Assembly (NCBI GenBank): GCA_046705325.1
Contig: JBJKQQ010000002.1
Location: 1 to 38,195, forward strand
Reading direction: 5' to 3'
DNA length: 38,195 nt
From: Candidatus Pacearchaeota archaeon
Lineage (GTDB): Archaea > Nanobdellota > Nanobdellia > Pacearchaeales > GW2011-AR1
This document shows, piece after piece, positions 3,885-19,112 of this stretch (the stretch's first letter is position 1; each line of letters opens with the position of its first letter). The notes below the pieces were generated by a model. The model did not search any database and was not told the origin of the DNA. It saw only the letters and a program-made list of their open reading frames with translations. The position numbers and the translations under genes are program-made.

Positions 3885-5297
3885 TTAGTCTTTCCTTAAT
3901 ATTTCCTGCATAAAAATATCACTACTTTTAGCCCTTAGTTCTTCGGCTTCTTTTATCAGAGTTTTTGCCTTTTTATAATCTTGATTAACCAGACTTATTA
4001 TCTTTTCTTGTGTTGTGATATTAGGCAGGGGAATTAAGGTATCGTAAAGTTCAGGGTCTCCTATCCTATCTCTTGAAGAACCTCTAATTGAATATTCCCA
4101 CTGCCTTAGGACATAAGGCGTTCTCAAAATAATCCAGAGATATTCGGGCAAAATTTTTTCAGAAACTATTTTCACAGGAATTAACTCTCCACTCCCTAAA
4201 AATCCATCTGTTTTTTCATCAACAATTATTATTTTTCCTTTTTCAGGTTGTAATCTTGAAATCAGTAATTCACCTTTCCTGAATACAACTTTGTCGCTCC
4301 CCAAAACAGGAACTTCTTTGATATTCTTTACTTCTCCAAAGTTTTCGTCTATGTCATATAATTCAACAAGGTCATAAAAGGGCTTTGGGGAAATCTCTCC
4401 TTTTTTTTGTATCTCAATAAGCTTTTCAAGAACTTCATAATCTCTTTTTTCTACTATGCCTCTTATCTTTTCTCTAAAAGGGCTATTAAATAAAGCGTCT
4501 ATTCTATCCAAATCAAGAGCGGAAGAATAGGTATTGAATTTTGATTTTTCTGGTAACTCTTCAAGTCCTAAAATTTTTCCTATCTTTTCATCTAATGCAA
4601 AGATTGTTTTTTGGCTTTCTTTTTTCTTGCTTTCAATATCTCTCTCAAGTTCTTCTATCTTCCTTATCGTCTCTCGCTGTTTGCTCAAACTTATCTCGCT
4701 GTCTGAGACAGGCAAAGAAATTTCAATCTCTCTGCAATTCTTGAGACTTAATTTATACTGCAAAGAACCGACAGCTAATCTGCTCGTCTGCATTTTACAA
4801 AAAGAAGTATTAAGCATATGAACTAAAAATTGAGTATCAATCTCATCCGTCTTTTTTCTTATCCTCGCAACATTTTCACTGAAAGCATTTTCTTGAAGAG
4901 GGGAATTAACAATTCCAACCTCTCCAATAGTCCCGACAATCGTAATAACTAAATCATCCTTTTTTAGATTGTAATTTTTTATTTGGGTATAGATTTCAGG
5001 ATTTATCTTCTTGCAGTCCTCAAAATCTATTCCCCCATCTTTCACGTCAGTAGCACTGATGTAAGGAATAGTGGTAAGCTCTGATTGTATCACAACCAAA
5101 CCTTTAGGCAATCTCTTCCCCCCGCTTACTCTTGCAACTCTTTCATCGCCTAAAGGTAATAATTCATTATTTTTGTTAGATAACTTCTTCCTTATGTTTT
5201 GAATTTTCCTTAGAAGGTATGGGCTATTAAATAAAGCGTCCAATCTTTCTGTCTTGTCATCTGTCAAGTCAAGAGAATAAAAATTTTCTTCATTCAT
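3885..5297 (-). CDS. hsdS: Restriction-modification specificity subunit (HsdS-like, two target-recognition halves)
   Basis: 470 aa. Each half opens with a (L/I)DALFNSP(Y/F) conserved segment (about residues 19-26 and 265-272). The two divergent TRD-like halves are separated by a charged, apparently helical spacer (residues ~205-225, KQRETIRKIEELERDIESKKKE). It overlaps the upstream MTase gene by 8 nt. Confidence 0.8.
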   Translation of the reverse strand: MNEENFYSLDLTDDKTERLDALFNSPYLLRKIQNIRKKLSNKNNELLPLGDERVARVSGGKRLPKGLVVIQSELTTIPYISATDVKDGGIDFEDCKKINPEIYTQIKNYNLKKDDLVITIVGTIGEVGIVNSPLQENAFSENVARIRKKTDEIDTQFLVHMLNTSFCKMQTSRLAVGSLQYKLSLKNCREIEISLPVSDSEISLSKQRETIRKIEELERDIESKKKESQKTIFALDEKIGKILGLEELPEKSKFNTYSSALDLDRIDALFNSPFREKIRGIVEKRDYEVLEKLIEIQKKGEISPKPFYDLVELYDIDENFGEVKNIKEVPVLGSDKVVFRKGELLISRLQPEKGKIIIVDEKTDGFLGSGELIPVKIVSEKILPEYLWIILRTPYVLRQWEYSIRGSSRDRIGDPELYDTLIPLPNITTQEKIISLVNQDYKKAKTLIKEAEELRAKSSDIFMQEILRKD

Positions 5298-7200
5298 TTC
5301 CTTTCAAAAATTCTTCATATTTATCATAAATCTTGGGTAAGTCATTAAGCTCCATAGTTTCTTTTCCTGCGTCATTATGCCCGACATTCTCGCTTATAGC
5401 CATAAAGACTTTTCCTTGTGTGTCTTTTGCTGATTTCTTTATTAAGTAAAGTATAGATGTTTTAACTCCTGCGTCTGCATTAACGAAAGTATTTTTAGGC
5501 AGGGAAATTATTGCCTTGATGATAAAATGATTTCTCAACCAATCTCTAAATCTTTTATATTCGTCTCCTTGTCCGTCTGCATTAAGGACGCTCTCGTCAA
5601 TTATTGTTATCAATTTTCCGCCTTCTTTCAGCAAATCAAAATATCTTTCAATAAACATAACATTTGATTTCAGGGAACGTATCTTATCCGAGTTTTCTCT
5701 TCCTTGAGGATATGCTAAATCGTATTGAGGCAAAATTCTTTTGTCATAATTATCCGACATTTTATATTTCATGCTGAAAGGGGGATTAGTCATAACAATA
5801 TCAAACCTCTTCTTTTCAAATAATTCTTTCAGTTCTTCTAATTCTTCTTTCCTCTCATCATTTAACCCTTTTGGAATTTCTACCTCTTTATCCAAAGTAT
5901 CTGCTAAAAATATATGGCTTCCCCCGTCTCCATGAAGATACATATTCATGCGGGCAATAGGAATAATCTTGTCCTCGCTTTTGTCAATCCCGAAAAGGCA
6001 TTTCTCCTTTATTTTCTTTTTTAGAACATCTTGATTAGTCTTGCAGTTCTTAGCTTTGTTTATCAAATCGCTAAGGGCAAAAATTAGGAAACCACCCGAA
6101 CCACAGCAACCATCTAAAATTAATGGCGGTTCGTAATCTTCTTTTTCCTTGTTATATTTTATCTGCAAGTTAGCTAACTTAGTCATAAATTTAACAACAG
6201 GTCTCGGAGTGAAGAACATTCCCAACTCTTTCCCCCTTATCACCGCACTCAAAAAAGTTTCAAAAACACGCCCGTTAATGTCATCCTCAACGCTCTTTAA
6301 GTCAAGATTTTCTATAAGCTTGGTTATCTCAATCGTGGTTTCTGTTTGCAATCCCAATTCTTCATTATCTTCAAAAATTCTTTTCTTCTCTTTTCTCTGG
6401 ACTTTTTTGTTTAATTCATCTCTGTATTGTTTGAACAGAACGTCCATCGGGTTTGCTTGTCTCTTGCTTAATTCTCTAATCCTATCAACAGAAAAGAATA
6501 CTTCTTCTTTAGGGATTGGCTTGTCTTTTTCTATTAACTCGTGAATTTTAGCGTCCTCATTTATCTTAACAAATAATAATTTAGTAAATCTGTAAAATGC
6601 TTCTTGAGGAGAAAGATTGTGTTTTTTCCAAATCAGATAATGGCACTGCTGGAAAATTCCCTTAAGCTCATCTATATCTGGTTGTCTGAACTCAAAGATT
6701 TCATCCTCTTTGCCTTTTATGTTTTCTCTTAATGAATTGTAAGAATAAACCTCTTTCAGTTTTTCATATTTCTTATTTCCGTCAATAAAATCTGAAAAAC
6801 TTAATTCAAGCACTGGTTTGTTTTCATCAAGTCTTAACAGGCAGGTTTTTATTCCGTTGCTAACCAAACAATAAGTTATTGGATTTGTCCCGATATACCC
6901 TCTGTTTATTATCTCTGAATAATCTTGTGCTTCATGGAAAAAGTCTTGGACTTCTAAATCAGGATGTTTTGCCTCAACAACAGAAATGATTATCCGATTG
7001 CTTCTCAAAGCATAATCGGGTCTATGTTCTGTTTTCTTCGCTCCTTTTCCGATTAGATATTTTGGTATTAAATGCTTTGTCTGAATATTTGTGTCCTTGT
7101 ATCCTAAATCCTTTAACAACCTGTCAATAAAGAAATGTTCAACGTCGCTCTCGTTTCTCAATACACTTCTCTCGCAGAATTTGTTTTTTTCTGCAACCAT
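5290..7200 (-). CDS. Gamma-class N6-adenine DNA methyltransferase (HsdM-like) fused to an N-terminal HSDR_N/PD-(D/E)xK-like domain
   Basis: Motif I LDGCCGSGGFL precedes motif IV VMTNPPF. The N-terminal roughly 100 aa contain HRPDYAL...ISVVEAKHP (PD...ExK pattern). Confidence 0.8.
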   Translation of the reverse strand: MVAEKNKFCERSVLRNESDVEHFFIDRLLKDLGYKDTNIQTKHLIPKYLIGKGAKKTEHRPDYALRSNRIIISVVEAKHPDLEVQDFFHEAQDYSEIINRGYIGTNPITYCLVSNGIKTCLLRLDENKPVLELSFSDFIDGNKKYEKLKEVYSYNSLRENIKGKEDEIFEFRQPDIDELKGIFQQCHYLIWKKHNLSPQEAFYRFTKLLFVKINEDAKIHELIEKDKPIPKEEVFFSVDRIRELSKRQANPMDVLFKQYRDELNKKVQRKEKKRIFEDNEELGLQTETTIEITKLIENLDLKSVEDDINGRVFETFLSAVIRGKELGMFFTPRPVVKFMTKLANLQIKYNKEKEDYEPPLILDGCCGSGGFLIFALSDLINKAKNCKTNQDVLKKKIKEKCLFGIDKSEDKIIPIARMNMYLHGDGGSHIFLADTLDKEVEIPKGLNDERKEELEELKELFEKKRFDIVMTNPPFSMKYKMSDNYDKRILPQYDLAYPQGRENSDKIRSLKSNVMFIERYFDLLKEGGKLITIIDESVLNADGQGDEYKRFRDWLRNHFIIKAIISLPKNTFVNADAGVKTSILYLIKKSAKDTQGKVFMAISENVGHNDAGKETMELNDLPKIYDKYEEFLKGNE

Positions 7201-7233
7201 AGAGTTTAAATACGTTTCGCATATTTAAACTCT
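7201..7233. promoter_or_regulatory. Palindromic promoter/operator of the MTase-S operon
   Basis: AGAGTTTAAATA-9 nt-TATTTAAACTCT forms perfect 12-bp inverted arms, each containing TTTAAATA. The minus-strand TATA (7229-7222) is centred about 25 nt from the MTase ATG (7200). Confidence 0.6.
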
Positions 7234-7295
7234 TCGTTTTTAAGCTTTTCCCGATTAGTTACGTCGCAGGCGTAACAGAATTCCCATTTTCATTC

Positions 7296-8540
7296 TTACA
7301 ATTCTTTTGTCTGCTCCAAAATAAACTCGGATTTTATGCCGAGTTCGTTCACTTCTTGGATTACAACGCAGATGTTATGGCAGAGGACTTTAAGCAAAAG
7401 TTCATTATATTGGGCTGTTTTGTTCTTGCTCCTTATCGCTCCGCCGAACTTTGCCTTAATCATGTGGAAAGTCGTTTCTACATTACTGCGGGCGTGATAG
7501 TGTTCAAGAAATTCATCATGCTTGTATAGAAAATAGTGATACATTTTTCCCCACAGACCGAGCGTTCCTCTTTTTCCTGAAACATTTTTCTTGAACGGAA
7601 TGAAAGCAACTCCGCCGACTTCGTCAATTACCTTAAGATTTGCTCGGCTGTTGTATGCTTTATCTCCACTTTGTTCTTTTATTGTGAAGTTCTCGGCTGT
7701 CTTTCTTACGAGTTCGGCAAGTTGCGGGCTGTCGTTTTCAGTTCCTTCCGTAACCTTGACTGAAGTGATGATGTTTGTTTTTGTCCCTGCATTTATGTGG
7801 GCTTTGAGCCAGACTTTATACTTTCGCTCCTTTCCCCATTTGTAATCAAACCAACGAGCATATCTTGAAGTTGAAAATCCCGAACTGTCAACTGCGAAGC
7901 TCGTGTCTGTTTCTTTCAACGGCAACGAGCTTAATGTAATCAGGTTTTCAAGTATCGGCGTCATCTCTGGCTTGTTCATATAATTGCTGACGCTCATATA
8001 AGTCGGCTCGTTCTCAATCAATCCGAACTCTTTGGCTATCTTGACATCGGACATGAACCGCCTTAAAGAAAATGTTGAATAAACTTTGAGAGCCGAATTA
8101 AAAATCATTTCCGAGATTGGAAGATTAGGTCTTCCGAATTTATATTCTGGCTGTTCAACATTATCCGCCAAATCTTTTAACAACCTCATAAAGATTATTT
8201 TCTCATTTGTTTGCGACTTGTCGTATGCTTTCCAATCTTGCTTATAGCTAACCTTTACGCCTTTGGTCTCTATGATTTTTCCTTCTTCGTCTATCTGCCT
8301 TTTTATGTAAAGCTCAACAGCGATTATATGCTTGCATTTCTTATGTCGCAGTTCGCAATCAGGACACGAGCAGACAGGATTTTCATTCCTGAAAATTACT
8401 TTGTATGCTTTGAACGAGGTTTGAGAGCCGACAACCCAAAAGTTATTCTGCTTTCTTATCCTTCCACGCTGAAAGATTAGCTTTCCTTTCTGCTCTCGGT
8501 CAAGATTTCTCAAATCCACCGATTGTATCTTTGTATTCAT
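7296..8540 (-). CDS. DDE transposase (IS4/IS5 superfamily) with an N-terminal SWIM zinc finger
   Basis: SWIM signature CSCPDCELRHKKCKH. Candidate DDE residues lie in FAVDSSGF, SGDKAYNS and NVETTF. An exact Y-x2-R-x3-E-x6-K signature is present (YHARSNVETTFHMIK). Confidence 0.85.
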   Translation of the reverse strand: MNTKIQSVDLRNLDREQKGKLIFQRGRIRKQNNFWVVGSQTSFKAYKVIFRNENPVCSCPDCELRHKKCKHIIAVELYIKRQIDEEGKIIETKGVKVSYKQDWKAYDKSQTNEKIIFMRLLKDLADNVEQPEYKFGRPNLPISEMIFNSALKVYSTFSLRRFMSDVKIAKEFGLIENEPTYMSVSNYMNKPEMTPILENLITLSSLPLKETDTSFAVDSSGFSTSRYARWFDYKWGKERKYKVWLKAHINAGTKTNIITSVKVTEGTENDSPQLAELVRKTAENFTIKEQSGDKAYNSRANLKVIDEVGGVAFIPFKKNVSGKRGTLGLWGKMYHYFLYKHDEFLEHYHARSNVETTFHMIKAKFGGAIRSKNKTAQYNELLLKVLCHNICVVIQEVNELGIKSEFILEQTKEL

Positions 8541-8547
8541 AATATAT

Positions 8548-8633
8548 TTAGATACCTAACCTTTATATACTTTTCGGTATCTAAAAGTATAAGTTGCAGA
8601 ATAGAAATCTTTATAAATAATAGGTATCTAAAA
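8548..8633. promoter_or_regulatory. Divergent promoter region with three copies of the 9-mer GGTATCTAA and two TATA boxes
   Basis: TTAGATACC at 8548-8556 (inverted), and GGTATCTAAAA at 8576-8586 and 8623-8633. TTTATATA (8562-8569) lies about 25 nt from the transposase ATG. TTTATAAATA (8610-8619) lies about 25 nt from the AbrB-like ATG. Confidence 0.55.
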
Positions 8634-8638
8634 AGGAC

Positions 8639-8800
8639 ATGAAATTGCAGAGCCAAATTTCAAGAAAGGTCGGTGAAACTGAATATCTTAAATCTTGGGT
8701 TGTTATACCTAATAAAATTCTTGAACAGCTTAAATGGAAATCGGGTCAGGATTTGGACGGAGAAGTTAAAGATGGCAAGTTGATTGTTAAGAAAAAATGA
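8639..8800 (+). CDS. AbrB/SpoVT-type (MazE-like) small DNA-binding protein, 53 aa, absent from the supplied ORF track
   Basis: Manual translation: MKLQSQISRKVGETEYLKSWVVIPNKILEQLKWKSGQDLDGEVKDGKLIVKKK. It shows the swapped-hairpin pattern v.IPk.i...L.wk.Gd.l...v.dgklivkk. Its stop overlaps the next ATG (ATGA). Confidence 0.65.
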   Translation: MKLQSQISRKVGETEYLKSWVVIPNKILEQLKWKSGQDLDGEVKDGKLIVKKK

Positions 8801-9138
8801 ACAAAAAAATTTATGAAAAATTAAAAGATGTTGCAAGAAGAAAAGACACAATTTCTTATTCACAATTAGCAAGTGATTGTAATTTCCCTTATTCTTCTAT
8901 TGATGAAAGAAATAAGTTTCATGAATTATTGGTGGAGATTTCAAGATTTGAAGTAGCAAATGGAAAGCCAATGTTATCTGTATTAGTTCATCATAAAGGA
9001 GATGTTGAAAGAAAATGTGGAAAAGGATTTTTTGAATTAGCAGATGAACTTAATCAGAGAAAAGAAAATGAAAAAGGAAATGATAAAAAAATGCAATATA
9101 GGATTATTGGAGAAGTTTGGAAAGAATATAACAAGTAA
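8797..9138 (+). CDS. Hypothetical 113-aa protein translationally coupled to the AbrB-like gene; possibly a winged-helix fold
   Basis: The ORF has a 4-nt ATGA overlap with the upstream gene. TISYSQLA...LLVEISRFEVANGKPMLSVLVHHKG is loosely reminiscent of MGMT/ATL-type wHTH but lacks a catalytic Cys motif. T-rich tracts follow the stop. Confidence 0.5.
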   Translation: MNKKIYEKLKDVARRKDTISYSQLASDCNFPYSSIDERNKFHELLVEISRFEVANGKPMLSVLVHHKGDVERKCGKGFFELADELNQRKENEKGNDKKMQYRIIGEVWKEYNK

Positions 9139-9168
9139 TTTTTTTCAGAGACTTTTTTTACAAAAGCC

Positions 9169-9185
9169 ACTTAATTTACAAAGCC
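9169..9185. repeat. Right terminal inverted repeat (17 bp)
   Basis: ACTTAATTTACAAAGCC, the reverse complement of 3836-3852. Confidence 0.85.
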
Positions 9186-9194
9186 TTCGTGATA
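9186..9194. repeat. Right copy of the 9-bp target-site duplication TTCGTGATA
   Basis: Identical to 3827-3835, in direct orientation. Confidence 0.8.
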
Positions 9195-9229
9195 GTAACG
9201 TTTAAAAACTGAAGTTCAGGTGTAATACC

Positions 9230-9427
9230 ATGATAATTCCGGTAAGATGTTTTTCATGCGGCAAGCCGCTCGGCCATTTGTGGGAAGAATACAAGCGCCG
9301 CGTCGCGGAAGGCGAAAAGTCCAGCAAGGTCCTCGACGAGCTGGGCATAGAAAGATTCTGCTGCAGGTCTGTGTTCCTCGGGCAAACGGATTTGATTGAG
9401 CTGGTCGGCAAATTCAAGAAAGCTTAA
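9230..9427 (+). CDS. rpoN: RNA polymerase subunit N (Rpo10)
   Basis: MIIPVRCFSCGKPLG..WEEY......G......LDELGIERFCCR. TATA TTTAAAAA (9201-9208) lies about 25 nt upstream of the ATG. Confidence 0.9.
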   Translation: MIIPVRCFSCGKPLGHLWEEYKRRVAEGEKSSKVLDELGIERFCCRSVFLGQTDLIELVGKFKKA

Positions 9428-9689
9428 GCTTGCTGATTTTATATCTGGATACATAATCGCAATTTCCGCATTCAATTGATTTTATTCCTTTGTTAATTTT
9501 GATTTTTTCTTTTCCTGAATAAGGCATCAAACACTTTTTGCAAAACGATTTTCTTTTTTCGCGAAGCCTGATGTTTGAATTCGCAGCCAGCTTCTTAATT
9601 TTCTTGACTTCTTTCGGAGTTTTGTTTTTTATATCCACAAAAAATTCTTCAATTTGTTTCGCGGCTTCAGACTTTGAAAGTTTTTTCAT
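9414..9689 (-). CDS. rnp4: RNase P protein component 4 (Rpp21/Rpr2 family)
   Basis: 91 aa with a basic helical N-terminus followed by the zinc ribbon FCKKC...ECGNC. It converges on rpoN with a 14-nt overlap. Confidence 0.7.
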   Translation of the reverse strand: MKKLSKSEAAKQIEEFFVDIKNKTPKEVKKIKKLAANSNIRLREKRKSFCKKCLMPYSGKEKIKINKGIKSIECGNCDYVSRYKISKLKLS

Positions 9690-10078
9690 TCAATTAATAC
9701 CTCCAATTCAGGATAGTTCTCCTTGCATCTCTCTGCCAGTAGCCTTCTATGGCATTTCTCTGAGGTTTTTTCAATACAGAGCAATCTTATATCTTTTCCT
9801 GCTGCTGCAAGGGTAAGATTCTCCACTTCTTCTCGTATGGAATCAAGATAATCAAAGTATCTTTTTTCAAACTCTTCCCAAGGAAGATATCTTTTATAAT
9901 AATCTCCAATAAGTTTTAATGGCGGCGCAAAAACATTCCAATGTTCATCGTAAGAAATGCCTTCGGTTATTCTCCTGTCCAGAGTTGTTCCGTCATTCAG
10001 GGTGTGCCTCGACATAATAGAAACCCTCAGAGTATCTTGTTCATTGTAATAAGTCAGAATGCAACCTGTTTTTAGCAT
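9686..10078 (-). CDS. DUF488 family protein
   Basis: HW..FAPPLKL...Y......WEEFEKRYFDYL.......L......K.IRLLCIEK..EKCHRRLLAE is the typical DUF488 pattern. Confidence 0.65.
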   Translation of the reverse strand: MLKTGCILTYYNEQDTLRVSIMSRHTLNDGTTLDRRITEGISYDEHWNVFAPPLKLIGDYYKRYLPWEEFEKRYFDYLDSIREEVENLTLAAAGKDIRLLCIEKTSEKCHRRLLAERCKENYPELEVLIE

Positions 10079-10298
10079 GGGAAATTTAAGAATTCAGATT
10101 TTATAAAATTAAAGAAAATGATAGAAGACAGTTCAATGAGTTCGCGCCTTTTGGGAGCTATAGTCATCGACGCAAAGGGCTTAGCTTCCGGGTTCGGAAA
10201 GAGACCGGGCGTTTCCCCTTTGCTTTGACCGTCTTCAAAAATTACTCAATATCTGGATTTATAAAACTTTTTATAGGGTCAATTTCTTGATATTTCAC

Positions 10299-10382
10299 GC
10301 GGGGGTGCCGGAGTGGTCAAACGGGCAAGATTAAGGCTCTTGTGGGTTAGTCCCTACACAGGTTCGAATCCTGTCTCCCGCA
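10299..10382 (+). tRNA. Class-II tRNA-Leu. The anticodon loop TTAAGGC reads AAG in the canonical register.
   Basis: The cloverleaf folds by hand. Acceptor GCGGGGG/CTCCCGC, anticodon stem CAAGA/TCTTG, long variable arm GGG..CCC, T arm ACAGG-TTCGAAT-CCTGT, discriminator A. TATA-like sequence lies about 29 nt upstream. Confidence 0.8.
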
Positions 10383-10433
10383 TGCATCGACAGGATTCTG
10401 GACCCCGGATCGAAAACATGGAGGAGGTTTTCA

Positions 10434-10454
10434 TTCGAATCCTGTCTCCCGCAT
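10434..10454 (+). repeat. 21-nt direct duplicate of the tRNA-Leu T-loop/acceptor 3' end
   Basis: TTCGAATCCTGTCTCCCGCAT at 10363-10383 recurs exactly at 10434-10454. A T5 run (10454-10458) follows only the second copy. Confidence 0.85.
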
Positions 10455-10566
10455 TTTTCAAGTTTAAGTTAAATCTCTTCAAAGAAAACCGGCCAAAAAG
10501 AGATACGCTTGGTTAGCTTAGATAGTTTAGAGAAAGATATATAAAATTAAGATTCTTCTTAAATTC

Positions 10567-11607
10567 ATGAAAATATTGTTGTCTAGAGAATCAAAGAAAA
10601 AACTACTTAAGTCCTTGCTTGAAAAAAATTTTTGCAGTTCTCTAAAGGAACTTTCAGAGATTCTAAAAATATCCAAGGGAACTTTAAGCGATTGGTTTTA
10701 TTCTGGAAAGAGATATTTGCCTGAAGAGATCATCCCTATACGCTTGAAGAGCAGGTTGCAAATTTTGGATCTCCAAAAAGATAATTGGGGGAAGATTAAG
10801 GGAGGAAAAGAAACTTACAAAATAATCTCCAAAAAATACGGGAAATCTGAAATCAAAAGAAGGCAGTCTCGGGGAGGAAAAGTTTCTGGAGAAAATCGGG
10901 GGAGCCTCGACAAACCTCTAAATCTTGATTTATCAAACAAATATCTTTTGGAATTCTACGGCGCGCTTCTCGGCGATGGCTGGATGGGAATATATAATGC
11001 TAAGAAAAAGCCCATTTATCTCATTGGTATTGCAGGCCATCTGACCCGGGATAAGGATTATCTTCTTTATCTGAGAGAAATAGTAAAAAGGTTTTTTGAC
11101 CGGAAAGGTTATCTGAAAGAAAGACCCCGCTACAATTGTTTAGAATTGCATTGTTATCATAAAAAACTCCTCTCCTTTTTTAATCAAAAATTAAACTTTC
11201 CTGTTGGCAAAAAAATTAATTTAAAGATCAACGATGAAATAGTCGAGTCTGGTTTTGATAAAATGAAATATGTGATAAGAGGAATATTTGATACTGATGG
11301 CTCTTTTTATTTAGACAAAGATCCTGCCGGAATGCCTTATCCTTGCATTTCCTTAACAATGAAATCTCCTCTGCTTTTGGAACAGGTTAGTAAGGTCTTG
11401 TTGAACGAGGGATTCAAAGTGAGTTTCAGGAAAGAGAAATATATGCTAACTCTGAAAGGAAAAAAACAAGTTTCTAAATGGTTAAAATCGATAGGTTTTT
11501 CAAACGAAAAACACCTAAAAAAGATAAGGTCCTGTAACTCAGCCTGGATAGAGTGCCACCCCCCTAAGGTGGAAGTCGTAGGTTCAAATCCTATCAGGGC
11601 CGCTTGA
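10567..11607 (+). CDS. LAGLIDADG homing endonuclease (double-motif) with an N-terminal HTH-like region. The ORF tail reads through tRNA 11528-11602.
   Basis: LAGLIDADG motifs LLEFYGALLGDGWM and VIRGIFDTDGSFY. TATATAAAA (10538-10546) lies about 25 nt upstream of the ATG. There is no in-frame stop before 11605-11607. Confidence 0.8.
   Translation: MKILLSRESKKKLLKSLLEKNFCSSLKELSEILKISKGTLSDWFYSGKRYLPEEIIPIRLKSRLQILDLQKDNWGKIKGGKETYKIISKKYGKSEIKRRQSRGGKVSGENRGSLDKPLNLDLSNKYLLEFYGALLGDGWMGIYNAKKKPIYLIGIAGHLTRDKDYLLYLREIVKRFFDRKGYLKERPRYNCLELHCYHKKLLSFFNQKLNFPVGKKINLKINDEIVESGFDKMKYVIRGIFDTDGSFYLDKDPAGMPYPCISLTMKSPLLLEQVSKVLLNEGFKVSFRKEKYMLTLKGKKQVSKWLKSIGFSNEKHLKKIRSCNSAWIECHPPKVEVVGSNPIRAA
11528..11602 (+). 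tRNA. tRNA, probably Arg(CCU). The anticodon loop is CCCCTAA, with an unusual C at position 33.
   Basis: A 75-nt cloverleaf. Acceptor GGTCCTG/CAGGGCC, D arm ACTC..GAGT, anticodon stem CCACC/GGTGG, T arm GTAGG-TTCAAAT-CCTAT. Confidence 0.7.
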
Positions 11608-11745: not shown

Positions 11746-12675
11746 ATGGCAGAATCAGAAGAAAAAACCGAAAAACGTGAAAGAAAGTTCAAAGAGAAAT
11801 TCGCAAGATTCTACCGCAAGAACTACAAAAAATTTCTTTTTGTAACTGCAACGCTAATAGCATTCTGCTTTGTTTTCATAATAATTTTCCACGCGCAAAA
11901 CGGCGACTTCATCCACAAAGATATCTCGCTTGCAGGAGGAACATCCGTAACTATCTATGATTCTTCACTGAACATAAACCAGTTAAAGCAAGACCTTCCG
12001 CAGTATCTTGGAGAGGTTGATGTCCAGTCAATAAAAGATCTTGTGACCCAGGAACAGAAGGCGGTCATAATAGAAACTTCTGCAGATTCGGACAACGCGC
12101 GGCAAATTTTGCAAAATTATCTCGGATACAATCTGACCGAAAAGAACAGCAGTTTCGAGTTTACAACGCCTTCGCTCGGAGGGAGTTTCTACCAGCAATT
12201 GCTTATTGCAATCTTGATAGCCTTCGCATTCATGTCTATAGTCGTTTTCATTCAGTTCCGGACCTTTGTTCCCTCGGCGGCAGTTGTAATCTCCGCTTTC
12301 GCGGATATTTTCATGACACTCATTGTTGTCGATATAATGGGAATGAAACTCTCGACTGCGGGAATCATCGCATTCCTTATGCTTATCGGTTATTCTGTAG
12401 ATACAGATATTTTGCTGACTACAAGAGTGTTGAAACGGGATGAAGGTTCAAACAATGAAAGAATATTCAAGGCATTCAAAACAGGTATTACTATGACCTT
12501 GACTTCGCTGGTTGCGGTTTTGTCCGCGCTGGTAATCACGAGTTCTTTCTCTTCTGTGTTGTCTCAGATTTTCACCGTTTTGGCAATCGGCCTAGGATTT
12601 GATCTGTTCAACACATGGGTTACGAACGCATCTATAATTAAGTGGTACGCTGAAGGCAGGAGGAAAAAGAAATGA
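11746..12675 (+). CDS. secF: Protein-export membrane protein SecF
   Basis: 309 aa. One N-terminal TM segment, a periplasmic-type loop, then five C-terminal TM segments. It lies directly upstream of secD (ATGA overlap), the archaeal secF-secD order. Confidence 0.75.
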   Translation: MAESEEKTEKRERKFKEKFARFYRKNYKKFLFVTATLIAFCFVFIIIFHAQNGDFIHKDISLAGGTSVTIYDSSLNINQLKQDLPQYLGEVDVQSIKDLVTQEQKAVIIETSADSDNARQILQNYLGYNLTEKNSSFEFTTPSLGGSFYQQLLIAILIAFAFMSIVVFIQFRTFVPSAAVVISAFADIFMTLIVVDIMGMKLSTAGIIAFLMLIGYSVDTDILLTTRVLKRDEGSNNERIFKAFKTGITMTLTSLVAVLSALVITSSFSSVLSQIFTVLAIGLGFDLFNTWVTNASIIKWYAEGRRKKK

Positions 12676-14195
12676 AGTTCAAGATAAAGTGGACTTGGAA
12701 GATATGGCTCTTAGTGATCATGCTTGCTCTTTCGCTTCTTGCGATTTTCGCCGGCGGAAATCTGTTCCAGAAAGGAGTTTCAATCTCAAGCGTCACTTCA
12801 AATTCAACTGCCGCGATGCAGGGATTCAAGGCAGGACAAATTATAACTTCAGTAAATGGCCAGCCGATTGAAAATACAAGCGACTACGCAAACATAATCG
12901 AATCTCACTTTTCGAACAATCAGACTGTAAAGCTTACTTTTGGCACAGACAATGGAAGCGTTGTCTATTACTCTGATGTGCCTCCACAAATTGTCGTTTC
13001 AGATTTGTCGCCAACAAACCTTAAGACCGGTTTGGATTTATCAGGCGGAGCGCGCGCATTAGTTCAGGCTGAAAATCACACTCTCTCTTCCGAAAACGCA
13101 AGCCTCATCGCGACAATGATTTCGCAAAGGCTTAACGTCTATGGCCTCGAAGACATTCAGGTCGCTCCAATCCAGGACCTTTCCGGAAACAATTACATCA
13201 GCATTGAAATCGCGGGAGCTACGCCAAGCGACTTGGAATCCCTGATTTCCCAGCAGGGGAAATTCGAAGCCAAGATTGGAAACCAAACCGTCTTCCAGGG
13301 AGAAAATGGCGACATCGCTTCTGTCGCAAGATCCGGACAGCAGGCAGGCATCCAAAGTTGCAATCAGCAATCGGATGGAAGTTACGTTTGCAGTTTCCAA
13401 TTTGCGGTTTACTTAAGTCAGACTGCGGCCGAAAGATTTGCGAACATAACCGCAGGCATTCCGGTAAGTGGACAATACCTGACAAAAACAATCGACTTAT
13501 ATCTTGACGGGCAGGAAATAGAAAACCTTTCCATAAGCAAGGACTTAAGGGGTCAGGTGCAGACACAGATTTCCATACAAGGTTCAGGAAACCCTGCTTC
13601 AACTTCGATAGACGCTTCCCATAATGCGCAAAATCAGATGAATAAATTGCAGACAATTCTAGAAACCGGAAGTTTGCCTTACAAGCTCGAGATAGTTAAA
13701 CTTGACACAATATCTCCGACTCTTGGAAAAGACTTCTCAAAAAGCATTTTGCTTGCCGCAATAGTTGCGATACTTGCGGTTTCTATAGTGGTTTTCATAA
13801 GATACAAAAAACCAAAAGCCTCGCTTGCTCTCTTACTGACAAGCACGTCTGAGATAATCATAATTCTCGGAATAGCTGCCGTAATCAATTGGAATCTGGA
13901 TCTTCCCTCAATTGCAGGAATCCTTGCTACAATAGGAACCGGAATCGACGCGCAGATAATTATCCTGGATGAAGCGCGCGGAAAATTCCTGTCGCTGAAA
14001 CAAAGAATCAAGCGCGCGTTTTCAATAATTGTCGGCTCTTATTTTACTTCCTTCGTCGCACTTATTCCTCTTTACAGTGTCGCTGCGGGCCTTTTCAAAG
14101 GCTTTGCATTCACAACAATAATCGGAATCACTATCGGCGTCCTGATTACGCGGCCCGCATTCGCGGACATCATTAATCTGGTCGAGAAAGAATAA
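12672..14195 (+). CDS. secD: Protein-export membrane protein SecD
   Basis: 507 aa with an N-terminal TM segment, a large extracytoplasmic domain (LKTGLDLSGGARALVQ) and a C-terminal multi-TM block. Confidence 0.8.
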   Translation: MKFKIKWTWKIWLLVIMLALSLLAIFAGGNLFQKGVSISSVTSNSTAAMQGFKAGQIITSVNGQPIENTSDYANIIESHFSNNQTVKLTFGTDNGSVVYYSDVPPQIVVSDLSPTNLKTGLDLSGGARALVQAENHTLSSENASLIATMISQRLNVYGLEDIQVAPIQDLSGNNYISIEIAGATPSDLESLISQQGKFEAKIGNQTVFQGENGDIASVARSGQQAGIQSCNQQSDGSYVCSFQFAVYLSQTAAERFANITAGIPVSGQYLTKTIDLYLDGQEIENLSISKDLRGQVQTQISIQGSGNPASTSIDASHNAQNQMNKLQTILETGSLPYKLEIVKLDTISPTLGKDFSKSILLAAIVAILAVSIVVFIRYKKPKASLALLLTSTSEIIIILGIAAVINWNLDLPSIAGILATIGTGIDAQIIILDEARGKFLSLKQRIKRAFSIIVGSYFTSFVALIPLYSVAAGLFKGFAFTTIIGITIGVLITRPAFADIINLVEKE

Positions 14196-14225
14196 TCTCA
14201 TTTCATTAAGAGATTTCTTATAATC

Positions 14226-15173
14226 CTAACTCTCATTTAAGACTCTTTCGACTTCACTTTTATCTTTTAATATTTCTTTTAAACCTTCTTTAAAACTTCT
14301 TGGTGAAAAACCAGGATAGATGGATTTTAATCGGGATATGTCTGTTCTTTTCTCGAAAGTTCCATCTGGTTTAGTGGGATCCCAGTCAATTTCTCCCGCC
14401 CAACCGATCTCTCCTGAAATAATCTCCACAATCTCTTTTATAGAATAATCAAAGCCGGTCCCTATATTTACAATTTCTTTTGAAGAGTAATGTCCCATAA
14501 GATAAATAAGAGCCTCCGCGCAATCTTCAGAATAAAGGGCCTCCCTTCTCGGGCTTCCCGTACCCCATAATATTACCTTGGAATTGTTTTTTTTGGCCAA
14601 AAGAAATTTTTTTATCAGAGTAGGAATCATGTGTCCATTTTCTAGGTCATAGGTATCCCTTAATCCATAAAGGTTGGTCGGCATAGCACAAATAGTATCT
14701 ATCCCATATTGTTTCCGGTAAAGTTGGCAAGCCACAACCCCCATCCCTTTTGCAACAGCATACCCTTTATTTGTCTCTTCAAGTTTCCCTGCCATAAACC
14801 TCTCTTCTTTTATCGGCTGAGGGTTTTCTTTAGGGTAAATGCATGTGGATCCGGTATAAAGCAATTTTGATTTTGGAGACTTTTCTTTTATAGATTCAAG
14901 AAGATTAAGGATCATTATCGAATTTTGGTATAAAAAATCAGCAGGTCTTTTTTTGTTTCCCATTATCCCACCAACTAACCCCGCAACCATAAAGATATGT
15001 TCAGGCAGATTATTTTCCAGATACTTTTCAATATCTCTCTTGTCAAGAAGATTTAGTTCTTTGCTTCTTGGAGACAATATGTTGTTGTAACCTCGCCGGA
15101 TTAAAATCCTTTTCACTGCACTTCCAAGCAAACCCCCTGACCCCAAGATCAATATTTTTGAATCCTTCTCCAT
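14226..15173 (-). CDS. fcl: GDP-L-fucose synthase (GDP-4-keto-6-deoxymannose 3,5-epimerase/4-reductase)
   Basis: ILILGSGGLLGSAV Rossmann motif, STCIYP, YAVAK (YxxxK). It lies immediately downstream of gmd. Confidence 0.8.
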   Translation of the reverse strand: MEKDSKILILGSGGLLGSAVKRILIRRGYNNILSPRSKELNLLDKRDIEKYLENNLPEHIFMVAGLVGGIMGNKKRPADFLYQNSIMILNLLESIKEKSPKSKLLYTGSTCIYPKENPQPIKEERFMAGKLEETNKGYAVAKGMGVVACQLYRKQYGIDTICAMPTNLYGLRDTYDLENGHMIPTLIKKFLLAKKNNSKVILWGTGSPRREALYSEDCAEALIYLMGHYSSKEIVNIGTGFDYSIKEIVEIISGEIGWAGEIDWDPTKPDGTFEKRTDISRLKSIYPGFSPRSFKEGLKEILKDKSEVERVLNES

Positions 15174-15174
15174 A

Positions 15175-16230
15175 TTAATAAAGAATTTTCTCTCCGGATT
15201 TTATGAGATTATAATCATGTTTGGTCATTATTTTAACTAACTCCCCGAACTTTGTTTTAGCTTTCCATCCTAATTTTTCTTCTGCTTTTCTTGGATTCCC
15301 TAAGAGTAGGTCCACTTCTGCAGGACGAAATTGTTTTGGATTTACTTTGATTATTTCTCTGCCAGTACTTTCATCAATCCCAACTTCATCAGCCCCCTTA
15401 CCTTTCCATTTAATTTTTATCCCTAACTCTTTGCAGGCCTCTTCTATAAACTCTCTAACCGAATGCAACTCCCCTGTGGCAATCACAAAATCTTCAGGCT
15501 TTTCCTGTTGGAGCATAAGCCACATTGCTTCTACAAATTCAGGAGCATAACCCCAATCTCTTTTTGAGTCTAAATTTCCCATCTCAAGATAATCCTGTAG
15601 GCCTAATTTTATTTTAGATAATCCAATTGTTATTTTTCTTGTTACAAAATTAAACCCTCTTCTTTCTCCTTCGTGATTGAATAAAATCCCATTACATGCA
15701 TACATATGATAAGATTCTCTATAATTCTTTATGATCCAGTATCCATATAATTTTGCAACTCCATAGGGGCTTCTTGGATAAAATGGGGTTTCTTCTGATT
15801 GGGGTGTTTCTACTACCTTTCCAAATAATTCAGAAGTTGAAGCTTGATAAATTTTCACTTTATCTTTTAATCCAAGTTCCCTTACTGCCTCAAGAATTTT
15901 CAATGTCCCAAGAGCATCTATACTTGCAGTAATCTCTGGAATTTCAAAGGATATCCTTACATGAGACTGTGCTGCAAGATTGTAAATTTCATCCGGACGA
16001 ATTTTATTTATCAAACTCATCAAAGAGACCACATCTGTAAGATCTCCATAGTGTAAGAAAAGCCTTTTATCAAGAATTTCCGAGTCATTGTACAAATGAT
16101 CTATTCTCCAGGTATTTATTGAACTGGCACGCCTAATTATTCCATGGACCTCATATCCCTTTTTCAAAAGCAAATCCGCGAGATGGGACCCATCCTGCCC
16201 CGTTATTCCAGTGATTAACGCTTTCTTCAT
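15175..16230 (-). CDS. gmd: GDP-mannose 4,6-dehydratase
   Basis: [52 protein letters not shown] and NHEGERRG are typical Gmd signatures. Confidence 0.9.
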
Positions 16231-16419
16231 ATTCCGAGGGGGGGCTTTTATTTTATAAAGATTATGAAACGGGGTTCCTGCGAAATTCTAACTCAAGAAA
16301 AAATTCAAATAAATATAATTTTGTAAATAGAGGATATCAAAGTAGGAAAAAATAAAAATAGGTCTCTGTTTGTTAATCGATGGGTGCGATTCAAAAGGAG
16401 AAAAAAGATTTTTCGGTCC

Positions 16420-16668
16420 TTCCAGTTTAGCCCTCTCAACAATCCTAATTCTTGCAGAATCAATTTTTCTATTGATTTCCGGAATATTTCTTGGATACCT
16501 TGACAGGATAATGCTCAGACACTTCGTTATAGAAGAATTTGTCGGATGCTATTTTGTATGCCTTGGTTTTATTGGTGCACTAACCCTCCGATGGAATTTA
16601 GTGCAGTTGTGCCCCCTTCTTTTTCAGTAGAAGGGGGAAGAATCGATTAAGAGGGTCTCCCTAACGGC
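16420..16668 (+). pseudogene. Internally deleted remnant of a Wzx-type flippase gene, paralogous to 17709-19112
   Basis: 16424-16455 resembles 17919-17950. 16470-16665 resembles about 18505-18725, at roughly 70% nt identity by eye; at the peptide level ISGIFLGYLDRIMLRHFV.EEFVG aligns with ISGIFFGYIDRLMLGHFVAGEFVG. About 550 nt between the two segments is missing. Confidence 0.65.
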
Positions 16669-16783
16669 GGTCGCGGGATTCTTCAAAGGTTTCGCGTTCA
16701 CGACCATTATCGGAATCACTATCGGCGTCCTGATTACGCGGCCCGCATTCGCGGACATCATTAATCTGGTCGAGAAAGAATGA
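16667..16783 (+). pseudogene. Detached duplicate of the last 38 codons of secD
   Basis: It translates to AVAGFFKGFAFTTIIGITIGVLITRPAFADIINLVEKE*. 16709-16781 is 73/73 identical to 14121-14193. The preceding 42 nt differ from secD at 14 positions, mostly synonymous. Confidence 0.85.
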
Positions 16784-16832
16784 ATGATTTTTATTTCATA
16801 AGTTTTAAAAGGAAATCTCTCTGTTCAGTAAC

Positions 16833-17678
16833 ATGAAAATTGGAATTATTGGAATGGGTTTCGTTGGTGGAACAACGGCCAAAGTTTTCGAAAAAGTTCA
16901 TGAAGTGATTCCTTATGATAAATACAAGGGGCCTTATACAGACCCATCAAGACTTTCAGATGCAGAAGTTATATTCATTTGCGTTCCGACGCCGATGAAA
17001 TCAAGCGGAGAAATCGATTTGTCCGCAATCCATGATGCTATGAATCTCCTTAAGAGATTATTTCCTGAGTCTAAACAAAAACCTCTTATTGTGATTAGGT
17101 CTACAATTATCCCCGGAACATCCGATGATTTAGAGAAAGAGTATCAATTCAATTTTGTTTCCAACCCGGAATTCCTTAGGGAAAAACACGCTCTTGAAGA
17201 TATGGAAAACACAAATAGAATGGTCATCGGGGCTAATAGGGGCGAAGACTCTAAAAAATTGGAAGAAGTTTACAAACCTCTTTTTCCTAATATAAAATAT
17301 GTCTGCGTTGATAGAAAAACAGCAGAGATGACAAAATATGCTTCGAATGTAATGCTTGTGAGCCAAGTAGCAATCGCCAATGAAATTTATCAGGTCTGCC
17401 AACATCTTGGCGTCGATTATGGAGAAGTTAAGGACACCCTTTTAATGGATGAAAGAATAGCAAGAAATATTCAGGTTCCCGGGCCTGACGGGGATCTTGG
17501 CTTCGGCGGGAAGTGTTTCCCTAAAGACCTTAGCGCGCTGATATACCTTTCTAAAGAAAAAGGCTACGACCCCGACCTGCTTGAAGAAGTATGGAAACTC
17601 AATGGAAGGATAAGAAAGAACAAGGATTGGCTTGACATAAAAGGCGCGACTTCGGAAAACAACTTCAAAAAAGAATAG
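16833..17678 (+). CDS. UDP-glucose/GDP-mannose dehydrogenase family protein, short form
   Basis: N-terminal KIGIIGMGFVGG Rossmann motif and the catalytic-Cys motif FGGKCFPKDL. Only about 55 aa follow the Cys. Confidence 0.7.
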   Translation: MKIGIIGMGFVGGTTAKVFEKVHEVIPYDKYKGPYTDPSRLSDAEVIFICVPTPMKSSGEIDLSAIHDAMNLLKRLFPESKQKPLIVIRSTIIPGTSDDLEKEYQFNFVSNPEFLREKHALEDMENTNRMVIGANRGEDSKKLEEVYKPLFPNIKYVCVDRKTAEMTKYASNVMLVSQVAIANEIYQVCQHLGVDYGEVKDTLLMDERIARNIQVPGPDGDLGFGGKCFPKDLSALIYLSKEKGYDPDLLEEVWKLNGRIRKNKDWLDIKGATSENNFKKE

Positions 17679-17708: not shown

Positions 17709-19112
17709 ATGAAGATCGCGAATGAGATTAATTCTGAGAAAAAAGATATTTCTGACATCTGGAGAAGAATGAAGACAAGGAATTTTTCCGGAAACACCGG
17801 CCTCGCAGTAAAAAATGGAGCTTACCAATTCTTGACCACAGTAGCTTCAAAACTCGGCTCTCTTATTTTAACAGTGGTCCTCGCGCGTCTCCTCATGCCC
17901 GAGCTTTTTGGACTTTACAATTTAGCTCTCTCGACAATCCTTATCTTCGCCGCTTTCTCCGAGTTGGGTTTGGGCTCTACCCTTGTAAGGTTCGTTTCAA
18001 GGGAACTTGGGAAAAAGAACAAGATTCTCGCAAAAGCTTATTTAAGGCATCTCGGAAAAATAAAGCTCTTCCTTCTTCTGGGCGTGTCTGCAATACTTTT
18101 GTGGTCTGCAAGATTCATCTCTGAAAATTATTACCAAAAGCCGTTGTTTTTGGCTCTTGCAGCCGGAGCAATTTACATCCTGATTATGGAATCCGTTATT
18201 TTCTTCCAGTCTGTTTTGCAGTCTTTCAATTATTTTAAGGGAATCTTAAAAAACGAATTTGTCTTCCAGATCTCCCGGCTGATCCTGGTCCCTCTTGCAG
18301 TGGTATTCGCTTTGAAATATTCTCTTCCACAGCAAAATATCTTGTTTTACATAATTCTTGCTTTGGCTGCTTCTTATTTCATATCCCTATTGTTCATAGC
18401 ATTCTTCCAGTACCGAAAGTTTAATCCACTCAAAGAGATTTCCAAAAAATTAAAACTCGAAAAAACAGACAAATCCGGCATTAACAAATTTTTTGCCGCT
18501 TCAATCGCCCTTTCGATATCCGGAATATTTTTCGGGTACATAGACCGATTAATGCTCGGACATTTTGTCGCAGGGGAATTTGTCGGTTACTATTCCGCCT
18601 CCATAAGCCTCTTTAGCGCCTTGATACCTCTGGCGGGATTCGGGGCCGTCGCTCTTCTCCCTGTTTTCAGCAGGATAGGAAAAGAAGAACAACTTGACAG
18701 GGGGATGAAAGGGTCTCTGAGGATGACTGTTTTTATTTCCATCATTGCCATAATAGGAACTCTCGCTTTGGCTTATCCCGCAATCTATCTGATATTTGGA
18801 ACCCCCTATCTTCCCTCTGTAAATATTCTAAGGGCTTTGTCGCCTATGCTGATCATAGTCCCTTTAACCAGCATTTACGGCGCTTACTTTTTGTCGAAAG
18901 GAAAACCCGGGATGATGTCCATACTTCTTATTTCAGCTACGGCGTTGAACATAGTCTTAAATTATGTCTTTATTGTAACTTTCATAAATATCAGCACGCT
19001 TGCCGCGGTTTACGGGGTTGTTCTTGGAACTGTAATAAGCGATTTGATCTACCTCTTGGCGTTGGTCGTCGCGAAGAAAAAACTTTCGAAAGTGCAAAAG
19101 AATAATGCTTAA
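17709..19112 (+). CDS. Oligosaccharide/polysaccharide flippase (Wzx-like, MOP superfamily)
   Basis: 467 aa with roughly 12-14 hydrophobic segments, in a glycan-cluster context. Confidence 0.7.
   Translation: MKIANEINSEKKDISDIWRRMKTRNFSGNTGLAVKNGAYQFLTTVASKLGSLILTVVLARLLMPELFGLYNLALSTILIFAAFSELGLGSTLVRFVSRELGKKNKILAKAYLRHLGKIKLFLLLGVSAILLWSARFISENYYQKPLFLALAAGAIYILIMESVIFFQSVLQSFNYFKGILKNEFVFQISRLILVPLAVVFALKYSLPQQNILFYIILALAASYFISLLFIAFFQYRKFNPLKEISKKLKLEKTDKSGINKFFAASIALSISGIFFGYIDRLMLGHFVAGEFVGYYSASISLFSALIPLAGFGAVALLPVFSRIGKEEQLDRGMKGSLRMTVFISIIAIIGTLALAYPAIYLIFGTPYLPSVNILRALSPMLIIVPLTSIYGAYFLSKGKPGMMSILLISATALNIVLNYVFIVTFINISTLAAVYGVVLGTVISDLIYLLALVVAKKKLSKVQKNNA

Follow-up and report, generated by a model that had tools for sequence, protein, structure and literature searches.

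The question raised by this locus is how two sugar-nucleotide genes came to lie between two copies of the end of a housekeeping gene. The stretch of DNA analyzed, referred to as the window, comprises 38,195 nucleotides (nt) of an NCBI contig and belongs to a Pacearchaeota-like DPANN archaeon, as judged from the source names of the homologues of its SecD protein. In the window, an archaeal-type secF-secD gene pair is followed by a surface-glycan island, and the 3′ end of secD recurs 2588 nt downstream, beyond an fcl-like gene, the gene gmd and a flippase pseudogene. The anatomy of the locus and the affinities of the two secD ends can be read directly from the bases (Table 1), and with moderate confidence we infer from them a one-sided insertion scar at the left edge of a hypervariable glycan island, formed by homology-facilitated illegitimate recombination (HFIR) with displacement of the C-terminal part of the gene. 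The order and the mechanism of the events that would have led to it are reconstructed below.

The repeat and the two secD tails

Positions 14121-14193 and 16709-16781 are identical at 73 of 73 positions, as the first-pass annotation of this DNA had reported, and no other stretch of at least 31 nt is repeated within the window. Both copies encode ..FKGFAFTTIIGITIGVLITRPAFADIINLVEKE*, and the statement that the detached copy still closes with a stop codon also holds, the two stop codons being different (TAA at 14194, TGA at 16782). Upstream of the repeat, the likeness of the copies drops sharply: in the 42 nt directly before it (14079-14120 versus 16667-16708) the copies agree at 29 positions, giving 13 differences instead of the 14 that had been counted before, and still further upstream the similarity is gone (4/39). 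Ten codons differ in these 42-nt parts, seven by a synonymous single change and three by a conservative replacement (V/A, A/V, L/F), which agrees with their earlier description as mostly synonymous and is the pattern that would be expected of two working alleles. If the background identity of 69% seen in these parts applied throughout, a perfect run of 73 nt would have a probability of about 2e-12.

No open reading frame (ORF) was called at the displaced tail (16667-16784). On its upstream side, the homology to flippases stops at ..EESIKR and the homology to secD starts at 16667, and there is no homology between the two partners joined here.

Ancestry of the secD end

The nearest SecD homologues are 89, 89, 85 and 81% identical to the protein of the window, and all of them are encoded in a secF-secD arrangement. 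Four distinct nearest relatives, cited by the handles L003, L004, L005 and L087, were counted in the comparison of alleles, L097 being the same contig as L087. Aligned with L004, the intact secD has a mosaic end in which segments of very different identity follow one another (Table 1). The atypical patch at 14059-14120 matches L004 at 41 of 62 positions and its flanks at 165 of 176 (Fisher p = 4e-7). The earlier claim that the sharp identity switch marks a recombination or gene-conversion boundary is supported. The patch encodes LIPLYSVAAGLF, where the clade has LLPLYWAVAGFF, and no fetched locus is more than 81% identical to it.

The detached copy behaves differently. Its 42-nt part matches L004, L087, L003 and L005 at 38, 37, 35 and 35 positions, versus 30, 30, 33 and 30 for the same part of the intact copy. 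When the detached 42 nt are set between the resident-type block (13930-14058) and the 47 nt with which the repeat begins, 203 of 218 positions agree with L004, compared with 76% elsewhere (Fisher p = 9e-10). Moreover, the detached copy and L004 both end in TGA, their likeness runs about 12 nt past the stop codon, and BLAST aligns the detached tail with the secD end of L004 at 86.7% identity over 135 nt, past the shared TGA. The detached tail, which lies nearer to each of the four relatives than the intact copy does and fills the gap in identity to L004, is thus the native, clade-typical secD end, and the working secD carries an atypical, presumably imported patch of 62 nt. The first-pass annotation had taken the second copy for the tail of a different secD allele; the presence of two alleles stands, and their polarity is reversed.

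A related observation concerns the flank as a whole: a block of about 238 nt (13930-14167, corresponding to L004 ~11250-11450) is 92-98% identical between the two lineages, in which secD is otherwise 76% identical and the flippases are 49% identical as proteins. The block indicates that lineages have recombined at the island flank. A further candidate source of the patch, the paralogous secF, was dropped because it matches at 75% over 20 nt only.

In 62 related loci, sequence is available for at least 1.5 kb past secD; a flippase gene on the same strand lies at most 160 nt after secD in 14 of them and at most 3.6 kb after it in a further 21 (35/62 in total). As a flippase is thus usual after secD in the relatives, the secD end forms the conserved left boundary of a glycan island that varies, and in this clade it is a mosaic recombination flank. 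In L005 and L087 the flippase follows secD directly and in L004 an epimerase gene comes first; none of these three close relatives has gmd-fcl after secD.

The bracketed genes

The gain of a gmd/fcl segment of about 2.6 kb, which the first-pass annotation had placed downstream of secD, is supported by the gene content of the nearest relatives; its place is corrected, as the segment was inserted inside the 3′ end of secD. The spacer between the repeat copies is AT-rich relative to secF-secD (36.8 versus 43.5% G+C) and not relative to the rest of the glycan island (38.6%), and the earlier description holds for the former comparison only. The product of gmd reaches 543.7 bits with TIGR01472, above the equivalog cut-off of 415 bits. 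The best match of the fcl-like gene is the GDP-L-fucose synthase model NF047922, which it covers in full length with 309 bits (equivalog cut-off 500). As predicted from these family assignments, the cell would by the gain of gmd and the fcl-like gene have acquired a supply of a GDP-6-deoxyhexose for its glycan island, probably GDP-L-fucose; the fcl-like product may possibly be another GDP-6-deoxyhexose.

The third bracketed element is the remnant of a flippase gene that carries an in-frame TAG at 16628. In blastx comparisons it matches the flippases of the window, L004 and L005 with 52, 48 and 46 bits; its segment MGAIQKEKKDFS aligns with MGFIQKEKEDLS of L004, and the DNA at 16449-16553 is 72% identical to 18490-18594 in the resident flippase gene. 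This remnant, with which the insert ends, begins with a start codon of its own, and a flippase is the usual neighbor of secD; the insert is therefore a section of a homologous locus that runs from secD to a flippase gene, and not the free GDP-fucose cassette that had been proposed.

The nearest Gmd homologue, 83% identical, is encoded between wecG and a flippase gene in an unrelated context, and the second-nearest, 81% identical, beside NUDIX and defense-type genes; in neither of these two contexts was the arrangement secD, fcl, gmd, flippase found. As an observation in its own right, gmd and fcl are paired again, as a unit of two genes, in DPANN-like contigs where the neighborhoods differ widely: in L088 (8001-9999) it lies between wecG and a flippase gene, and in L089-L094 beside NUDIX, with AbiEii, HEPN/nucleotidyltransferase or Schlafen-like defense genes in addition in L089 and L090. 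This recurrence is consistent with gmd-fcl being a portable module.

A/T-rich, TATA-like boxes can be read about 25 nt before the start codons of gmd, the flippase pseudogene and the ugd-like gene that follows the displaced tail, and they are putative promoters; a scan for bacterial-type promoters and terminators gave nothing above chance. Within the flippase pseudogene there is also a perfect 9-bp stem (CCCCCTTCT / AGAAGGGGG) at 16612-16637, about 27 nt before the illegitimate junction. The folding energy of this hairpin is no better than that of shuffled sequences (z = -1.55), and the fold of the secD/fcl spacer is likewise nothing above chance.

A proposed one-sided insertion in secD

In the favored account, the ancestral locus would have had secF-secD directly before ugd, the flippase gene and the rest of the island, with an L004-like secD end. 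The donor would have been another Pacearchaeote whose locus consisted of secD, then fcl and gmd on the opposite strand, and then a flippase gene. At the left end, a homologous crossover may have taken place inside secD, between about 14046 and 14060, and at the right end the donor flippase gene, near codon 331, would have been joined illegitimately to nt 1408 of the resident secD. About 20 nt of the resident secD would thereby have given way to about 2.6 kb (14059-16666). With the secD tail that came from the donor, the reading frame would have been restored and secD kept intact, while the last 115 nt of the resident gene and its stop codon would have been pushed downstream as a non-coding remnant, and the truncated donor flippase gene would then have decayed by deletions and a stop codon. 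Finally, the 73/73 identity may be due to a short gene conversion from the native to the imported tail, up to the stop codon, or the donor may already have been identical there. In this model the conversion ends at the stop codon, where the homology ends; L004 shares 47 nt of the repeat although the lineages are otherwise 24% diverged.

Among the marks of HFIR and C-terminal displacement, the locus has an allele-switch junction in secD, an illegitimate junction, and an orphaned 3′ end together with an intact gene; a donor carrying both the imported allele and the cargo was not found. Several points weigh against this account. No donor sequence was found: the patch has its closest match at 81% over 62 nt, and the DNA of the gmd-fcl cassette at 75%. 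A second step, a conversion between tails that differ by about 25-30%, is needed to explain the 73/73 identity. The block of high identity is defined by a single relative, L004, and for the intact gene taken by itself the maximum chi-square test gives a borderline p = 0.06. In addition, the Logan run with which the structure was compared, SRR31309758, and the source of the genome bin may not be separate samples.

This comparison was made with an independent assembly of the run, the k=31 contigs of Logan, in which the sequence of the window is reproduced exactly. Contig L001 equals window positions 14164-16738, that is, the 2515-nt spacer and exactly 30 nt (k-1) of each repeat copy, and contig L002 starts at 16752, 30 nt before the end of copy 2. 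The graph breaks exactly at the repeat (R), which forms a node with two edges in (the secD body, and the flippase pseudogene with the divergent tail) and two edges out (fcl and ugd). As the assembly breaks exactly there, all four junctions exist in the reads. The sole linear path through all edges of the graph is secD-R-(spacer-R)n-ugd, with n at least 1; the graph is also compatible with a 2588-nt circle beside secD-R-ugd. The structure of the window is regarded as physically real, and a chimeric contig as unlikely. An exact-protein look-up of SecD gave no match because the Logan contigs break inside the repeat.

The direct repeat would permit RadA-type recombination to delete the cassette, and precise excision, with strains with and without the cassette coexisting, is possible. 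No deletion variant was found in any collection searched, and a k=31 graph can neither resolve a 73-nt repeat nor show a mixture with the deletion form. As a side observation, L002 stops at 18962, inside the resident flippase gene (17709-19112), at a point with no repeated 31-mer, which suggests strain variation or low coverage in the 3′ part of that gene in the run.

Searches for a donor and for further displaced tails

None of the 84 related loci has a second secD tail. The search for a donor turned up neither YSVAAGLF/NLVEKE in any sequence nor a match above 81% identity to the 62-nt patch. A 32-mer from the repeat had no match in the JGI metagenomes, a degenerate AAGLFKGFAFTT scan gave six matches, none of them donor-like, and a search with the 47-aa tail peptide gave seven short fragments only. 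No viral contig with the tail motif and no plasmid match were found. One of the seven fragments, L096 (GCA_964634845.1, CAZWLX010000027.1; 2568-4069), was rejected as a displaced tail, as its secD is split into ORFs of 446 and 53 aa by a frameshift or a sequencing error.

A separate observation comes from a 522-nt contig, L095 (ENA ERZ27228609, k141_5844607). At 237-416 it has an ORF of 59 aa, of which the last ~41 residues are a SecD tail (..TAGLLKGFAFTTVIGLTLGILITRPAFADIV..), while neither its first 19 residues nor the DNA upstream of it is related to secD; in that DNA, the other strand holds an ORF for a membrane protein, with no Pfam match. The breakpoint lies at most two codons from that of the window. 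L095 may be a second displaced secD tail or a chimeric short contig.

Alternative explanations

The alternative that survives best, and is still unlikely, assumes the same one-sided insertion from a sister strain in which the secD tail was identical and the island was not. The insertion would then have created a perfect duplication of 115 nt, and the patch at 14059-14120 would have entered the working copy afterwards through a short conversion, unrelated to the insertion, from a divergent sequence. This course needs no conversion between diverged repeats; near-identical flanks with very different islands do exist, as L004 shows with 92-98% identity in the secD end and 49% in the flippase, and transformation can leave short discontinuous donor segments, according to PMC13344027. 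It requires, however, that an independent foreign patch of 62 nt hit the left edge of the duplication, for which our own estimate is about 12% for a random position in a 1.5-kb gene, and the patch adjoins the side of the cassette, as would be expected if the two had arrived together.

Less probable than this is a Campbell-type integration, in which a circularized donor fragment with the secD tail, fcl, gmd and the 5′ part of the flippase gene entered by a single crossover within 73 nt that were already identical, the repeat being the crossover site. A single crossover with a circle leaves exactly this outcome, the homologous segment directly duplicated on either side of the insert, the 2588-nt circle is compatible with the k=31 graph, and L004 shows that a 47-nt part of the repeat can be common to lineages that are otherwise 24% diverged. 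Besides the extra step of circularization, the polarity of the tails argues against it: a resident-type left copy and a donor-type right copy are predicted, whereas the left copy is atypical and the right one clade-typical, and the resident would have to carry the odd patch natively inside an L004-like block.

A more far-reaching proposal, which we consider improbable, is that the FKGFAFTT-coding end of secD serves in DPANN archaea as a recurrent, integrase-free anchor at which sugar-gene modules would be added, stacked and lost at the head of the glycan island, in the manner of a cassette system, with L095 as the second instance and the repeat as a population switch of fucosylation.

Very improbable is an integrative element whose integrase targets the 3′ end of secD and which carries a replacement tail, so that the 73-nt repeats would be attL and attR. 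The foreign DNA is indeed flanked by perfect direct repeats, and the conserved gene at whose 3′ end it lies is kept intact; the orphan SecD tail of the unrelated contig L095 starts at most two codons from the same position. The bracketed DNA, however, holds only fcl, gmd and the flippase pseudogene, without an integrase or recombinase, the diverged homology reaches 42 nt past the perfect core, and the searches of the 84 related loci, viral contigs and plasmids speak against the reuse of such a site.

An assembly artefact, in which a chimeric or looped contig joined two strains through the common 73 nt, is given equally little credence. The DNA comes from a metagenome bin, in the k=31 graph the repeat is a branching node, and the break of L002 at 18962 without a repeat hints at strain variation in the sample. 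Yet the 2575-nt contig L001 runs unbroken from repeat to repeat with the exact sequence of the window, so that any genome holding it has the order R-spacer-R. The two edges into and the two edges out of the repeat have the order of the window as their only linear solution, the detached tail, being truncated and joined to the flippase pseudogene, is not the end of a second complete secD, and the coherent mosaic relative to L004 is unlike a random chimera.

The weakest alternative is a tandem duplication in situ from secD nt 1408 to flippase codon 331, with later divergence or replacement of the first copy. It would account for the gene order and would add a single new junction, between the interior of the flippase gene and the secD tail. 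The gene content of the two copies is not the same, however, with fcl and gmd in one and ugd in the other; their flippase parts share just 36% identity as proteins and 72% over 105 nt of DNA, and the additional replacement needed would itself be the foreign insertion.

Comparison with known systems

One-sided insertion by HFIR, the reading preferred here, has bacterial precedents (de Vries & Wackernagel, 2002; Prudhomme et al., 2002; Meier & Wackernagel, 2003; all as cited in PMC5361080), among them conjugation in E. coli (PMC3240628). As in those cases, homology in a conserved gene anchors one end and the other is joined to unrelated sequence, and a few resident bases are lost while kilobases are gained. 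HFIR has been demonstrated experimentally in bacteria, whereas in the DPANN archaeon it is deduced from a scar, and here an additional homogenization of 73 nt has to be explained.

Displacement of C-terminal parts with orphan 3′ ends is reported from Rhs, contact-dependent inhibition (CDI) and type VI secretion (T6SS) effector-immunity loci (Jackson et al., 2009; Kirchberger et al., 2017, PMC5361080). At such loci, as in the window, the incoming module brings a new 3′ end for a conserved upstream gene together with cargo, and the old 3′ end is orphaned downstream. The same process has been proposed to explain orphaned 3′ ends at T6SS effector-immunity loci in V. cholerae and at Rhs loci (PMC5361080). 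Unlike in these systems, the displaced gene is the housekeeping gene secD and not a polymorphic toxin gene, the cargo consists of sugar-nucleotide genes and not of immunity genes, and instead of arrays there is a single displacement that does not recur in the 84 related loci.

In bacterial O-antigen and capsule loci, serotype-like replacement occurs via recombination in conserved flanking genes. The window resembles them in that a conserved flank, secD with its mosaic ancestry, borders a variable island that opens with a Wzx-type flippase gene; it differs in that the foreign segment was added in tandem and the island was kept, leaving a flippase pseudogene and a duplicated end of the flank. 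Variable glycosylation clusters have an archaeal precedent in Haloferax (PMC5867893). With elements that use tRNA genes as att sites, the locus shares the perfect direct repeats flanking the insert and the carried copy of the 3′ end that keeps the target gene intact, but it has no integrase, its cargo is a fragment of a homologous chromosomal locus, and reuse of the site was not found in related loci or viral contigs.

The locus would thus be a base-resolved example of an episymbiotic DPANN archaeon changing its surface-glycan repertoire through one-sided recombination in a housekeeping flank and not through a mobile element. In these cells, surface glycans are likely important for attachment to the host and for virus recognition. 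It is, on the whole, a clean but ordinary recombination scar, the mechanism and outcome of which are familiar from bacterial glycan, Rhs and T6SS loci, and it extends a known pattern to a new lineage without introducing a new principle.

Genomic context

The glycan island, which extends to about 31181, encodes after secF-secD the ugd-like protein, the flippase, WecG, transferases of the families GT1, GT2 and GT4, rmlC and rmlD-like products, glf and an oligosaccharyltransferase of the AglB/STT3 type. The best NCBIfam matches of secF are SecF models, at about 204 bits and below the equivalog cut-off, and secF is syntenic in L003, L004, L005 and L087. The intact SecD aligns over its full length with homologues at 89-75% identity.

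Table 1. Positions of the features of the locus and its surroundings, with the identity of segments of the secD end to L004.
Feature	Position	Strand	Description
Type I-like restriction-modification pair	3885-5297; 5290-7200		S subunit; methylase
DDE transposase	7296-8540		with SWIM finger
DUF488 gene	9686-10078
5S rRNA	10123-10236	-	lone
LAGLIDADG ORF	10567-11607		3′ end overlaps tRNA-Arg (11528-11603)
secF	11746..12675	+	first gene of archaeal-type secF-secD pair; Pfam SecD_SecF_C
secD, intact	12672..14195	+	507 aa, N-terminal PDZ domain, last ~137 nt mosaic; Pfam and NCBIfam matches
secD, intact, main part	12720-13929		76% (922/1210) identical to L004
secD, resident-type block	13930-14058	+	92% (119/129) identical to L004
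secD, atypical patch	14059-14120	+	66% (41/62) identical to L004
secD, intact copy, 42-nt part	14079-14120		71% (30/42) identical to L004
Direct repeat, copy 1	14121..14193	+	last 24 codons of secD; 73/73 with 16709-16781
Repeat, first 47 nt	14121-14167		98% (46/47) identical to L004
Repeat, last 26 nt	14168-14193		69% (18/26) identical to L004, background level
fcl-like gene	14226..15173	-	GDP-L-fucose synthase family, SDR epimerase/reductase; Pfam Epimerase, E = 5e-50
gmd	15175..16230	-	GDP-mannose 4,6-dehydratase; Pfam GDP_Man_Dehyd, E = 3e-148
Divergent intergenic region	16231..16379	.	between gmd and flippase pseudogene; read from sequence
Flippase pseudogene	~16380..16654	+	Polysacc_synt/Wzx-type; start codon and first 12 codons, pieces ~aa 64-81 and aa 257-331
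Illegitimate junction	16655..16666	.	flippase codon ~331 joined to secD nt ~1408
Displaced secD tail	16667..16784	+	clade-typical 42-nt part, repeat copy 2 (16709-16781) and TGA; no start codon
Detached copy, 42-nt part	16667-16708		90% (38/42) identical to L004
ugd-like gene	16833..17678	+	short nucleotide-sugar dehydrogenase, first gene of resident island; Pfam UDPG_MGDP_dh_N and central domain
Flippase, intact, resident	17709..19112	+	conserved opening gene of glycan island; Pfam Polysacc_synt

The ugd-like gene reaches 208.9 bits with TIGR03026, above the cut-off of 189.8 bits, and lies directly 3′ of secD also in L026 and L057. Its product has 281 aa, without the usual C-terminal domain, and matches of the same length and 57-66% identity are encoded after secD in L024, L026, L027, L054, L057 and L077. 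Because same-length matches follow secD in several relatives, the short protein looks like a conserved short form and not a truncation.

Residues 33-90 of SecD (window 12672-12950) form an N-terminal PDZ domain in the clade (Pfam PDZ_6, PDZ, PDZ_2), and several database records label the SecD of the clade merely as 'PDZ domain-containing protein'. Upstream of secF, positions 3885-11607 are a variable patch, which besides the features in Table 1 contains three tRNA genes. In a comparison restricted to protein genes, none of the protein-coding genes of this patch was found among the called genes of L003 or L004, and in these two relatives ribosomal-protein and RNA-polymerase genes lead toward secF.

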